A program made the position numbers and the translations under genes. From the IMG/VR virus record IMGVR_UViG_2690316343_000007: DNA of 7,011 bases. One strand, given 5' to 3'. This DNA is from a virus (Duplodnaviria; Heunggongvirae; Uroviricota; Caudoviricetes). The notes under the pieces are model-generated. The model was not told where the DNA came from, did no database searches, and saw only the letters and a list, made by a program, of their open reading frames with translations. Positions 4,368 through 6,222 of this stretch are shown one piece after another (position 1 is the first letter of the stretch; every line of letters starts with the position of its first letter).

Positions 4368-4631
4368 AGAAAACGCCAGACTGTTAGCCGGGTATCAGTT
4401 AGCGGGAGAAATTTTTAAATACTTCACAATTCAGGCGGTTGACTGTTGTCTGGTTTGCGGGGAGTTTGTTAAAAGAAACTGGCATGGTGAATCCCCCTGT
4501 GCGGAGGGGCAATCAGCGAGTAGGTATATGGGATAATCGCGGATTCAGGTGCTGGTACTGAATTCACCGGGAGGCACCCGGCATCATGCAATGGCACATA
4601 GCGCCACTCTCCAGCCCTCTCCGGAGGGGCT
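4368..4631 (+). repeat. direct repeat copy A (~264 bp), partner of 5958-6222
   Basis: Aligned by eye to 5958-6222 at an offset of 1590: one substitution (T4584 vs C6174), one 1-nt indel in the terminal hairpin, and one N in copy B. Contains several hairpins (4494-4509, 4541-4565, 4567-4581). Confidence 0.95.
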
Positions 4632-4636
4632 TTTCT
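4613..4636 (+). terminator. intrinsic-terminator-like hairpin at the 3' end of repeat copy A
   Basis: AGCCCTC...GAGGGGCT stem with one bulged base and a TCCG loop, followed by TTTTCTGTG. Confidence 0.4.
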
Positions 4637-4863
4637 GTGCCGGATACATCACAGTTTCTGGAACCTTAGGTACTACAGTATCAGTCAGGGTGCTATATTT
4701 TCAGATGTGATGAAAGCCTGTCAGCAGGCAGGGCGTATCGGAAATGACCCAGTAGAGAAAACGTTGACTCAGATACCGGTGCTGAGTTACCGGGAAACCG
4801 GCATCACATGACCGCTATCCTGAGGTGTACTGGCAATAGCGGACACTACCATTTGTTCTTTTT

Positions 4864-5682
4864 TTAAGCAGCCATCTGATGATATTTTTCCCTGAAGGCT
4901 GCCGGGGAGATATTCCCCAGACGAGAGTGACGACGCTGACGATTGTAGAAAATCTCAATGTATTCCCGTATTACTGAGATGGCTTCATCCCGGTTATTAA
5001 AACGATAGTGGCTCAGGCTCTCATTTTTCAGCGTTCCCCAGAAGCTTTCCATCGGAGCGTTGTCGTAACAGTTACCTTTACGCGACATTGATGTTTTCAG
5101 ACCAGACTGCTCCTGTATGACCCGGTAATCGTATGCGCAGTACTGTGAACCTCGATCAGAGTGGTGGATTAGCCCGGCAGGTGGGCGCTGGCTCCTGAGC
5201 GCCATAAACAGGGCTTTACCTGTCAGCTCTTTTGTCATGCGCTCTCCCATGGCGTAGCCGACAATTTCGCACGTATAAACATCTTTGATGCCAGCGAGGT
5301 ACAACCATCCCTCCTGTGTGGCAACATACGTCAGGTCCGCCACCCAGACCTGATTTGGTGCTGTAGGAGCGAACGTCTGGTTCAGCAGATTTGGCGCAAC
5401 TGGCAGATTGTGGTTCGAGTTCGTAGTCGCTCTGAACTTGCGTTTCTGCTTACAGCGTAGCCTTAGCTCCTTACGAAGACGTGCCAGTCGGTCACGACCA
5501 ACGATGATGCCATTCTCTGCCAGCTCCGTCTGGAGCCGCCGGGTTCCATATGTTTCGCGAGTGCGGATATGTGCCACCTTAATCTCCAGTTTTAGCCGCT
5601 CATCACTTTGTTTTCTGTCTGAGGGTTCATGCTGTACCCAGTTGTAATAACCGCTCCTGGATACACCAAATACCTGACACAT
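4864..5682 (-). CDS. IS3-family transposase OrfB (DDE/RNase-H-fold catalytic domain)
   Basis: 272-aa ORF with the characteristic WVADLTY, HSDRGSQY and CYDNAPMESFWGTLKNE segments. Its frame is open upstream back to the slippery site, consistent with OrfAB fusion by a -1 frameshift. Confidence 0.9.
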   Translation of the reverse strand: MCQVFGVSRSGYYNWVQHEPSDRKQSDERLKLEIKVAHIRTRETYGTRRLQTELAENGIIVGRDRLARLRKELRLRCKQKRKFRATTNSNHNLPVAPNLLNQTFAPTAPNQVWVADLTYVATQEGWLYLAGIKDVYTCEIVGYAMGERMTKELTGKALFMALRSQRPPAGLIHHSDRGSQYCAYDYRVIQEQSGLKTSMSRKGNCYDNAPMESFWGTLKNESLSHYRFNNRDEAISVIREYIEIFYNRQRRHSRLGNISPAAFREKYHQMAA

Positions 5683-5717
5683 CGCTTCAATGGGAAATTG
5701 TTGTCGCCATTGTTCGA

Positions 5718-5957
5718 TTAACGCGTATTTTTCAGCGACTCCTGTGCAAAATACGCTGTTGCTTTTTTTAATATATCTCGCTCAAGGCGAGCTTCATTTA
5801 ACGCCTTACGCAGTTGCAGAATTTCAGATTCCAGTTCAGCCACCGTGCGGGAACCAGGAGTACCGAGCCCTTTTCTGGCGGCGGTAACCCATTGTCCTAA
5901 AGTGCCTTCAGGAAGAGATAATCGGGAAGCGCCTTCACTGATCGAAAGTTGATTTTC
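5718..5957 (-). pseudogene. IS3-family transposase orfA, 5'-truncated (about 79 codons, no start codon)
   Basis: Minus-strand translation gives ...ENQLSISEGASRLSLPEGTLGQWVTAARKGLGTPGSRTVAELESEILQLRKALNEARLERDILKKATAYFAQESLKNTR-stop, an HTH plus leucine-zipper OrfA C-terminus. The upstream frame runs into repeat sequence with no Met. Confidence 0.75.
5763..5769 (-). other. programmed -1 ribosomal frameshift site (A AAA AAA heptamer) linking orfA to orfB
   Basis: Seven consecutive T on the plus strand (A7 on the coding strand) inside the orfA 3' end. A -1 shift here reads KKSNSVFCTGVAEKYALIEQWRQQFPIEAMCQVFGVS into OrfB with no stop. Confidence 0.6.
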
Positions 5958-6222
5958 ANAAAACGCCAGACTGTTAGCCGGGTATCAGTTAGCGGGAGAA
6001 ATTTTTAAATACTTCACAATTCAGGCGGTTGACTGTTGTCTGGTTTGCGGGGAGTTTGTTAAAAGAAACTGGCATGGTGAATCCCCCTGTGCGGAGGGGC
6101 AATCAGCGAGTAGGTATATGGGATAATCGCGGATTCAGGTGCTGGTACTGAATTCACCGGGAGGCACCCGGCACCATGCAATGGCACATAGCGCCACTCT
6201 CCAGCCCCTCTCCGGAGGGGCT
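5958..6222 (+). repeat. direct repeat copy B (~265 bp), partner of 4368-4631, directly abutting the truncated IS
   Basis: See copy A. Position 5959 is an N, right next to the junction with the IS fragment. Confidence 0.95.

Follow-up and report, generated by a model that had tools for sequence, protein, structure and literature searches.

STnc100 (Rfam RF02076) is a family of prophage small RNAs for which we know of no established function, and it is reportedly linked, on statistical grounds, to HUS risk. Few bacterial sRNAs are annotated more often (PMC9029176), and EDL933 carries 11 transcribed STnc100 loci, one of them verified by Northern blot, with STnc100 loci well expressed in uninduced lysogens (PMC5331693). 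One member, EcOnc27/sRNA103, lies downstream of stx2B in the Stx2 phages Sp5 and 933W and has been detected via Hfq-CRAC and Northern blot (PMC7873438; PMC12711010). Two relatives come from EPEC E2348/69, the Hfq RIL-seq sRNAs PasD1 and PasD2, which are reported to share ancestry with STnc100 (bioRxiv 10.64898/2026.05.13.724894) and which we compare here by the description in that preprint. In the EHEC Sakai prophages, the AsxR/EcOnc27 and AgvB/EcOnc06 dyads occupy the same slot as STnc100, from the late promoter to the lysis genes.

The window analysed here, the whole 7,011-nucleotide stretch of a caudoviricete record (IMG/VR IMGVR_UViG_2690316343_000007), contains a direct repeat whose two copies lie on the plus strand at 4368/4370-4631 and 5958/5960-6222, spaced 1590 bp apart. 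Repeat search and MAFFT alignment bore out the preliminary description, in which the copies differed by one substitution and one single-base indel: these are T4584 vs. C6174, and CCC (~4614-4616) vs. CCCC (6204-6207), and the resulting 264-nt match at 99% identity is far above chance. The repeat unit is wider than the RNA that it encodes, as it begins in the final 20 nt of a DUF3927 open-reading frame (4256-4387) and takes in the promoter region; copy 1 (4368..4631, plus strand) holds the 3' end of that frame, the promoter region and, as far as the terminator stem, an STnc100 gene. Copy 2 (5958..6222, plus strand) is identical to the element that E. coli 042 and the S. sonnei P1 locus described below each carry once. 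A covariance-model search, which had been suggested as a check, identified RF02076 in both copies (cmscan, gathering score 47 bits), with 122.5 bits for copy 1 (4453..4642, plus strand) and 132.4 bits for copy 2 (6043..6232, plus strand), each match spanning model positions 1-206 of 206 and not truncated. By these matches both copies are full-length STnc100 members, each a predicted self-contained sRNA gene of lambda-like prophages. The family is already catalogued and the element is not new, a correction to the earlier statement that it matched no familiar repeat family. The same model was called in E. coli 042, in ATCC 11775 and at 18 loci of other genera, and a 22-nt core motif was found at 110 loci among Enterobacteriaceae species representatives. 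A weak third STnc100-like match in the window (4681-4869, 21.8 bits, E = 0.16) was treated as chance, and an equation of STnc100 with IpeX of the K-12 DLP12 prophage was dropped, there being no STnc100 match in NC_000913.3 at 570-580 kb.

The surroundings are those of the late region of a lambdoid prophage, with RusA, Q, a methylase and three tRNAs upstream of STnc100, and a DUF1737/esterase-type gene downstream, followed by a holin in related loci. This is the same slot, from Q/tRNAs to the lysis genes, that the family occupies elsewhere, and the presence of several copies per genome recalls the 11 loci of EDL933. The copies of the Stx phages share the core motifs and the terminator with both window copies, yet are only ~69-76% identical to them, and whereas EcOnc27/sRNA103 follows stx2B, what precedes the element in the window is a small moron (ORF117 and DUF3927) or tRNA-Arg. 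Beside it we detected no antisense partner resembling AsxR or AgvB: the whole window gave no match to AsxR (RF02703) or AgvB (RF02702) at E <= 1, so that the dyad is represented here by its STnc100-like half alone. PasD1 and PasD2 resemble the window element in being prophage-encoded, near the Q antiterminator and intrinsically terminated; they are Hfq-associated and are said to share the consensus fold, but their loci are linked to lpxR, which is missing from the window, and their seed regions are reported to differ. Full-length RF02076 matches, together with published homologues that are expressed and Hfq-bound, support the original proposal of a phage-encoded, structured and intrinsically terminated sRNA.

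The preliminary description took the repeat to bracket a truncated IS. Copy 1 is followed by a 189-bp spacer (4632..4820, plus strand), which is the natural sequence downstream of the STnc100a gene in ATCC 11775-type and S. sonnei P2 prophages, and then by a truncated IS600 of the IS3 family (4821..5958, minus strand), of which 1138 of 1264 bp remain. Over these 1138 bp it is 99.5-100% identical to IS600 and retains one terminal inverted repeat (TGAGGTGTACTGGC...); unlike IS600, it lacks the other inverted repeat along with 126 bp on the orfA side, and ends at a single 'n' (5959). This 'n', where internal IS600 meets P1-locus sequence, is the only non-homologous junction and is probably a scaffold join. 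Closed S. sonnei P2 loci carry a complete IS600 at this same insertion site (4820/4821), with a TCC target duplication on its flanks. A second IS600 end (6981..7011, minus strand) interrupts the DUF1737 gene, again as in closed S. sonnei P1 loci. The repeat itself is no IS terminus, as had been surmised: it has no similarity to IS600, which rejects it as a part of that element, and E. coli 042, like many other genomes, has one copy of it with no IS alongside. Nor is it the IS600 target duplication, which is the 3-bp TCC.

Comparison with closed S. sonnei genomes resolves the window into two loci that lie ~0.67 Mb apart on the same closed chromosome (CP104423.1). Locus P1 has the order Q, tRNAs, ORF117, DUF3927, STnc100, iraM and a DUF1737 gene interrupted by IS600; locus P2 has the order Q, methylase, tRNAs, STnc100a, 189 bp and IS600. 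The P1 locus of closed S. sonnei genomes matches the window with 100% identity at 1-1701 and 5960-7011 and with 0 differences at 3680-4583; P2 matches it with 0 differences at 1694-3748 and 4454-4820. Copy 1 is a chimera, with P1-locus alleles to 4453 and P2a-type alleles from 4584: its two 'private' differences are exactly the P2a alleles, and the switch lies inside a 130-bp identical stretch. Similarly, all internal switches between the two loci fall within identical stretches (54, 69 and 130 bp), and the last lies at the 'n'. The window therefore looks like a Shigella sonnei-type draft scaffold in which two paralogous prophage remnants were threaded through shared exact repeats, and as the scaffold threads both, its two STnc100 genes would belong to different loci. 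Neither a methylase after Q nor an IS between DUF3927 and iraM was found in any of 10 closed-genome contexts of the 284-aa Q protein. Elsewhere in the same scaffold, a gap of 187 Ns is flanked by duplicated 53-mers that are single in closed genomes, a 53-bp duplication that is clearly spurious. We conclude that the succession of copy 1, 189 bp, truncated IS600 and copy 2 most likely does not represent a genuine locus, and we assign a probability of about 0.72 to the joint reading of STnc100 sRNA genes in a layout that is most likely an assembly artefact. One argument for an artefact was not retained: the left repeat boundary at 4368 does not mark the start of homology between P1 and P2, which begins at 4412. 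No single assembler k-mer size accounts at once for the overlap of 53 bp, the loss of 126 bp from IS600 and the point at which copy 2 starts.

A true tandem is an unlikely alternative. Here recombination between the remnants, followed by an illegitimate join inside IS600, would have left two STnc100 genes flanking a dead IS600, which would double the sRNA dosage and supply a 264-bp substrate for further deletion. The artefact reading is drawn from sequence comparison, and real homologous recombination (RecA-dependent exchange) would also cross over inside identical stretches. The suggestion that the repeat is a substrate for homologous recombination gains, in one sense, from the finding that copy 1 is a hybrid of two alleles with its crossover in the 130-bp stretch, be it made in the cell or by the assembler. 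Base 1693 carries the P1-locus allele 8 nt before P2-locus-specific sequence starts; a strict two-locus k-mer graph would not produce this, which calls for either a real strain difference or an error of the consensus at the G/T homopolymer border, and the base speaks for a source that departs at some point from the closed references. S. sonnei does undergo true rearrangements between these loci through IS600, as in L132, where the genes flanking P1 adjoin P2, and natural tandem STnc100 pairs are found in other prophages. A real tandem would however demand four alternating exchanges and one non-homologous join that itself carries the 'n', in a scaffold that already contains the spurious duplication around its N gap. 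The junction 5958/5960 was absent from 5,426 complete E. coli genomes, from the closed S. sonnei genomes examined, and from viral and metagenome contigs (IMG/VR and JGI metagenomes). An exact-pattern scan of species-representative genomes returned 0 matches to the junction of the 189 bp with IS600, and a look-up of the truncated 41-aa orfA product found only unrelated IS600 copies. The transposition chemistry of IS3-family elements is also not known to remove one of their internal ends.

Whichever way the copies came to lie side by side, each contains the complete family core. The conserved elements of RF02076, a closing helix around a GGUGAAU-CCCCC hairpin, a variable hairpin and a CCGGGAGGCACCCGG hairpin, are present with all helices in both copies. 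In copy 2 the structured core (6072..6179, plus strand) is made up of helix P1 (6072-6079 with 6172-6179), helix P2 (6083-6087 with 6093-6094 and 6096-6098, A6095 being bulged), helix P4 (6131-6138 with 6148-6155), helix P5 (6157-6161 with 6167-6171) and a pseudoknot that pairs 6102-6107 (AUCAGC) with 6141-6146 (GCUGGU), and this copy folds into the family consensus at -69.5 kcal/mol (z = -2.96). The core of copy 1 (4482..4589, plus strand) has the same four helices and pseudoknot (4512-4517 with 4551-4556), and its U4584 turns the helix P1 pair G4487-C into G-U. Structural conservation, another of the checks that had been put forward, was assessed in 87 diverse Enterobacteriaceae homologues, and the helices covary: 78.8% of cells are paired in the consensus vs. 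at most 49% with slid 3' partners, and the covariation score of 0.25 (at most 0.15 for slid partners) was reached by 0 of 500 shuffles. Helix P2 is 99.5% paired with compensatory changes in three of its five pairs, helix P4 is 88% paired with many pair types, and in helix P1, 67 sequences have G-C and 13 have A-U at pair 4/150. In fixed alignment columns the pseudoknot, which is missing from the Rfam consensus line, was paired in only 33.5% of cells because its register shifts between sequences; a register-free test of cognate against non-cognate linker/loop pairs, which replaced the fixed-column one, found at least 6 contiguous bp in 75% of cognate vs. 21% of non-cognate pairs, with 55 distinct helix sequences. 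The family core therefore shows strong covariation, the pseudoknot included.

A conserved core with a pseudoknot is not what one would usually expect of a plain Hfq base-pairing sRNA, and the true function may differ or be additional. A rather unlikely reading is that function depends on structure rather than on a seed: the core would be a conserved pseudoknotted domain, possibly tRNA-shaped, that binds a protein or ligand or mimics tRNA in phage-host conflict, with Hfq pairing secondary. The covariation of P2, P4 and the pseudoknot speaks for it, as do the core blocks GGUGAAU and CACCGGGAGGCACCCGGCACCA, (near-)invariant across genera, the latter partly by selection, since the 22-nt block was used to select the sequences. 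Helix P5 beside the 3' strand of helix P1 (...GCACCA) resembles a T arm with an acceptor stem, the element is often immediately 3' of phage tRNA genes, and one subfamily has the core ahead of open-reading frames with no terminator between. The likeness to tRNA is however a visual analogy only: neither the Rfam tRNA model nor ARAGORN calls a tRNA on the repeat, both finding just the three true tRNAs of the window at 3507-3756, and no ligand or protein partner is known. If the reading is true, phages of many Enterobacteriaceae would deploy the core as an sRNA in its own right and, in one subfamily, also as a 5' leader ahead of genes, and the Hfq-dependent sRNA activity described so far would be only part of the role of STnc100.

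In the preferred reading as an sRNA gene, each copy has its own predicted promoter, with TTGTCT, 18 nt and an extended -10 element TGtTAAAAG, at 4446..4475 in copy 1 (extended -10 at 4467-4475) and 6036..6065 in copy 2, both on the plus strand; transcription would start at ~4482 and ~6072. We assign this promoter because the TTTGTTAAAA block is conserved in Escherichia-type copies and canonical promoters stand at the same position in other genera, with canonical sigma-70 sites ending ~8 nt before GGUGAAU in 16% of homologues vs. 2% of shuffles. A sigma-54 promoter (TGGCAT-N5-ATCC, 4480-4494) was rejected, in a by-eye check only, for the misfit of its -12 element. The first 108 nt form the compact core, which homologue covariation shows as helix P1 closing around hairpins P2, P4 and P5, with the linker after P2 paired to the P4 loop in the pseudoknot; in the sequence, a linker of ~25 nt and a Rho-independent terminator follow. 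The 3' Rho-independent terminator of RF02076 is present in both copies, at 4613..4641 (plus strand; stem 4613-4631, weakened by the missing C, tail UUUUCUGU) and at 6202..6232 (plus strand; a stem of 9 bp, 7 of them G-C, then a U-rich tail), in agreement with the GC-rich hairpin and T-rich tail previously noticed at the end of each copy (4613-4631 and 6202-6223). Its use in both directions was rejected, the minus strand being without a U tract. The predicted RNA is ~155-160 nt, or 190 nt by Rfam boundaries, so the 200-260 nt first proposed was too long. By analogy with published homologues it would be made in lysogens, be bound by Hfq and act in trans on mRNAs via its variable region, and its terminator may also stop transcription arriving from upstream moron or tRNA genes in the lysogen.

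The Escherichia-type promoter is weak by consensus (4/6 in each hexamer), and processing of a longer transcript could yield the RNA instead. This brings in a distinctly unlikely alternative, in which the element acts in cis, as a piece of the phage late transcript or of an upstream mRNA, and is not an independent sRNA gene; the forms considered were a structured 3' UTR, a terminator/stability module and a processing site, small RNAs observed elsewhere being by-products. In phages the element is always in the late operon, with Q/tRNAs on one side and lysis genes on the other, directly after stx2B, tRNA-Arg or a moron, and for PasA, encoded in the same region, cleavage out of a longer transcript has been reported. 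Against a role in cis stand the canonical -35/-10 elements of many homologues in other genera, which place the start at the first base of helix P1, the good expression of the loci in uninduced lysogens (PMC5331693), and a pseudoknotted core that exceeds what a terminator needs. That the repeat is protein-coding is scarcely credible: small ORFs of 40-53 aa are present on either strand, PGAP calls pseudogenes under STnc100 in E. coli 042 and ATCC 11775 and RefSeq annotates a minus-strand 'incomplete hypothetical protein' under the element, but no ORF of at least 60 aa overlaps either copy, in line with the preliminary description (the longest reach 53 and 50 aa), a Pfam search matched none of the repeat's five ORFs, homologue variation tracks base-pairing rather than codons, indels across homologues are frequent and not multiples of three, and the Rfam score is very high.

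For the window itself, this leaves a catalogued prophage sRNA whose striking layout is probably an assembly error, and the practical lesson that biology should not be read into a repeat when it flanks an 'n' in a scaffolded draft. For the family, the covariation and the pseudoknot offer concrete positions to mutate for probing the conserved core of STnc100, an RNA of wider interest as it is frequently annotated, adjoins stx2 and has a reported statistical link to HUS risk.

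The direct repeat of 264/265 nt recovered by repeat search and alignment (4368-4631 and 5958-6222, spaced by 1590 bp) is a member of an already known sRNA family and is not novel. The preliminary description had taken it for a possible phage-encoded sRNA matching none of the repeat families it considered (REP, ERIC, IS ends) and had proposed a covariance-model search: cmscan of the window against Rfam 15 gave two full-length, untruncated plus-strand matches to RF02076 (Gammaproteobacterial sRNA STnc100; gathering score 47), at 4453-4642 in copy 1 (122.5 bits) and 6043-6232 in copy 2 (132.4 bits). 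The element therefore belongs to RF02076, to which it conforms in score, core, terminator and context, which supports the sRNA proposal. Calls of RF02076 were likewise obtained for E. coli 042, whose homologous locus holds a single copy, for E. coli ATCC 11775, where two calls lie in tandem, and across many further genera. A weak third STnc100-like match (4681-4869, 21.8 bits, E = 0.16) lies below threshold, covers the 189-bp spacer and the IS600 end, and is probably due to chance.

The repeat, ORF and hairpin checks all agree, and what was first read from the sequence is therefore confirmed: the copies differ by a single substitution (T4584 vs C6174) and a 1-nt indel in a C run (~4614-4616 vs 6204-6207), no ORF of at least 60 aa overlaps either copy, five short ORFs of the repeat (40-53 aa) have no Pfam match, and each copy ends 3' in a GC-rich hairpin with a T-rich tail. 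Three details go beyond the preliminary description: the unit starts within the final codons of a 43-aa DUF3927 ORF (4256-4387, plus strand), a 189-bp spacer (4632-4820) lies between copy 1 and the IS, and the base joining the IS to copy 2 (5959) is given as 'n'.

The whole window belongs to a lambdoid prophage, of which it is the late-regulatory region. It carries, in order, RusA (411-785), a Q antiterminator (782-1636; Pfam Antiterm, E = 7e-55) that has a DnaJ-type zinc finger, a tR'-like terminator 40 nt past the Q gene (1676-1701, CCCGCCGCCGAGCGGG then T6), a 65-aa ORF, a DNA methyltransferase (2408-3466) and three tRNA genes (3507-3756) with anticodons CAT (tRNA-Ile in RefSeq), Arg-TCG and Arg-TCT, a set resembling the ileZ-argN-argO one that Stx-type lambdoid phages typically have. 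The sRNA is flanked by small 'moron' genes: the unannotated 117-aa ORF117 (3867-4220, plus strand), DUF3927 and an iraM-like anti-adapter gene (6258-6593, minus strand; IraM in RefSeq), which had no match in the Pfam scan of the window and has a precomputed PmrD Pfam match in related loci. The IS600 between the copies (4821-5958, 99.5-100% identity) lacks 126 bp at the orfA end; a second IS600 in the same orientation, whose end lies at 6981, cuts off a DUF1737/esterase-type gene after its start, and closed S. sonnei genomes have this gene interrupted likewise. A 36-bp repeat (4816-4851 and 6976-7011) is made up of the terminal inverted repeat of IS600 and flanking bases that resemble each other (TATCC/TACCC).

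The two copies do bracket a truncated IS in the sequence as described, but comparison with complete genomes indicates that this layout is probably not real. The repeat itself is not an IS terminus, nor is it a target duplication; the duplication made by IS600 is 3-bp TCC. In E. coli 042 and hundreds of further complete genomes 3760-4631 and 6223-6983 are contiguous, with one STnc100 and no IS; prophages of the ATCC 11775 type show the order tRNAs, STnc100a, 189-bp spacer and a diverged second STnc100b; neither IS junction of the window occurs in complete E. coli genomes. Exact-protein look-ups led to closed chromosomes holding both loci, which we take to be Shigella sonnei (HE616528.1 presumably being strain 53G), where two prophage remnants lie ~0.67 Mb apart on the same chromosome (prophage P2 at 1.857 Mb and prophage P1 at 2.526 Mb in CP104423.1). 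Prophage P1 reads IS21, 85-aa ORF, RusA, Q (284 aa), tRNAs, ORF117, DUF3927, STnc100, iraM and DUF1737 broken by IS600; prophage P2 reads Q (273 aa), 65-aa ORF, methylase, three tRNAs, STnc100a, 189 bp, a complete IS600, STnc100b, esterase and holin.

Painting the window base by base with these loci resolved it into alternating blocks: 1-1701 matches prophage P1 (0-1 differences), 1694-3748 prophage P2 (0), 3680-4583 prophage P1 (0), 4454-5958 prophage P2 (2, both within the multicopy IS) and 5960-7011 prophage P1 (0), with the 'n' at 5959 assignable to neither. Both differences between the copies are exactly the alleles of STnc100a in prophage P2 and the 5' part of copy 1 carries prophage P1 alleles, thus copy 1 is a chimera of the two prophages. 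Every internal switch lies in a stretch identical between them, namely 54 bp at the terminator after Q (the two prophage types diverge directly past 1676-1701), 69 bp at tRNA-Arg UCU (3680-3748) and 130 bp in the STnc100 core, none of them shorter than the 53-bp contig overlap duplicated on either side of the 187-N gap at 1773-1959 (window 1720-2012). This 53-mer is single, and the sequence continuous, in ATCC 11775 and closed S. sonnei genomes, so the gap is a scaffold-gap artefact; both prophage P2 blocks in the window contain Ns. Judging by gene coordinates, the window would start where unique prophage P1 DNA begins after IS21, and it ends 31 bp into IS600; it therefore resembles the usual 3.7-kb prophage P1 contig with two prophage P2 blocks spliced in. 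Such splicing is what graph assemblers and scaffolders yield from a pair of paralogous loci that make up a bubble chain.

Three points form the main evidence against an artefact. Real recombination between the prophages would use the same identical stretches for its crossovers. Base 1693, which sits on a G/T homopolymer border just 8 nt ahead of prophage P2-specific sequence and carries the allele of prophage P1, is the sole site at odds with a clean switch from P1 to P2. Genuine IS600-associated rearrangements are also known in S. sonnei: in one closed genome (L132 1-3385, LR213449.1) genes normally beyond the prophage P1 IS600 adjoin an IS600 at the left end of prophage P2, therefore real IS600-mediated rearrangements between both remnants occur. 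Weighing these points, we put the probability that the copy 1-IS600-copy 2 arrangement is an assembly artefact at roughly 75-80%. STnc100 genes also occur naturally in tandem or in clusters within one prophage, their sequences having diverged to ~80% identity, in E. coli ATCC 11775 (two; locus L002, 3828-4018 and 4296-4505), Enterobacter (two; locus L025, 3418-3847) and Superficieibacter (four; locus L028, 3940-7941).

Homologues of the core were gathered independently of Rfam by an invariant 22-mer (CACCGGGAGGCACCCGGCACCA), giving 110 loci from species-representative Enterobacteriaceae genomes, including Kosakonia, Enterobacter, Klebsiella, Raoultella, Citrobacter, Trabulsiella, Buttiauxella, Erwinia and Pantoea. 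In an alignment of 87 diverse cores, counted against the structure written from the window sequence, 78.8% of cells were paired, vs 41-49% with the 3' partners slid by 1-3 columns, and the covariation score was 0.25 vs at most 0.15 for slid partners, a value reached by 0 of 500 shuffles. In helix P2, 99.5% of cells are paired and three of the five pairs show compensatory changes (C-G, G-C, A-U, U-A); its best fit is a 5-bp helix that bulges out 1 nt, in a register slightly different from that of Rfam. Pairing in the basal part of helix P4 reaches 88%, through many types of pair, and pair 4/150 of helix P1 is G-C in 67 sequences and A-U in 13. Helix P5 and most of helix P1 are invariant, partly through the way sequences were selected, so they give no evidence either way.

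The linker after helix P2 and the apical loop of helix P4 are complementary to each other, and the family has a covarying pseudoknot between them (AUCAGC with GCUGGU; 4512-4517 with 4551-4556 in copy 1, 6102-6107 with 6141-6146 in copy 2). Its score in fixed alignment columns is poor because the register shifts among sequences; a register-free test supports it, in which at least 6 contiguous base pairs formed in 75% of cognate vs 21% of non-cognate linker/loop pairs (mean duplex energy -8.8 vs -6.6 kcal/mol), with 55 different helix sequences among the homologues. Neither the Rfam consensus line of RF02076 nor the PasD/STnc100 preprint includes this pseudoknot (bioRxiv 10.64898/2026.05.13.724894). 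Folding of both copies, as the preliminary description had suggested, placed copy 2 exactly in the consensus architecture (-69.5 kcal/mol, z = -2.96). In copy 1 (-61.9 kcal/mol, z = -0.6) the terminator stem is weaker for want of one C, and the substitution turns a G-C pair of helix P1 into a structurally neutral G-U.

Many homologues in other genera have a canonical TTGACA-17-TAAATT-type promoter ending ~8 nt before GGUGAAU, from which transcription would begin at the first base of helix P1; sites with at least 9 of 12 matches occur in 16% of homologues vs 2% of shuffles. Escherichia-type copies, including both here, conserve TTTGTTAAAAG instead, a predicted extended -10 (TGtTAAAAG; 4467-4475 and 6057-6065) with a weak -35 (TTGTCT). 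Predicted starts at ~4482 and ~6072 would give an RNA of ~155-160 nt, shorter than the 200-260 nt first proposed.

In EHEC EDL933, 11 loci of the prophage sRNA STnc100 are transcribed, and a Northern blot has confirmed one of them (PMC5331693). The copy located 75 nt downstream of stx2B (PMC12370729) overlaps EcOnc27/sRNA103, verified by Hfq-CRAC and Northern blot (PMC12711010; PMC7873438), and common ancestry with PasD of EPEC has been reported (bioRxiv 10.64898/2026.05.13.724894). It ranks among the most often annotated sRNAs and has no assigned function (PMC9029176). The AsxR and AgvB partners are absent from the window (no Rfam match at E <= 1). We regard each copy as an sRNA gene in its own right, which would comprise a promoter, a structured 5' core, a ~25-nt variable linker and an intrinsic terminator. 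If it behaves like EcOnc27 and PasD, the RNA would be produced in the lysogen, bound by Hfq and paired with mRNAs in trans, and without Q the terminator may also shield the lysis genes from upstream transcription; our own evidence comprises sequence features and covariation, and homologues are the source for expression, Hfq binding and targets.

The eye-catching arrangement is probably not real, and the element itself is already known. Its pseudoknotted core is conserved to a degree unusual for a simple seed-pairing sRNA, which leaves room for a fold-dependent function. A subfamily with helix P2 GCGGCUCAGCGCACGCG (loci L011, L012, L017, L036, L053, L054 and L006/L106) points the same way: here the core is followed 30-65 nt downstream by an RBS and ORF, with no terminator, which suggests that the STnc100 fold can also act as a 5' leader. 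The pseudoknot, the revised helix P2 register and this leader-type subfamily are potentially new, at the level of the family only.
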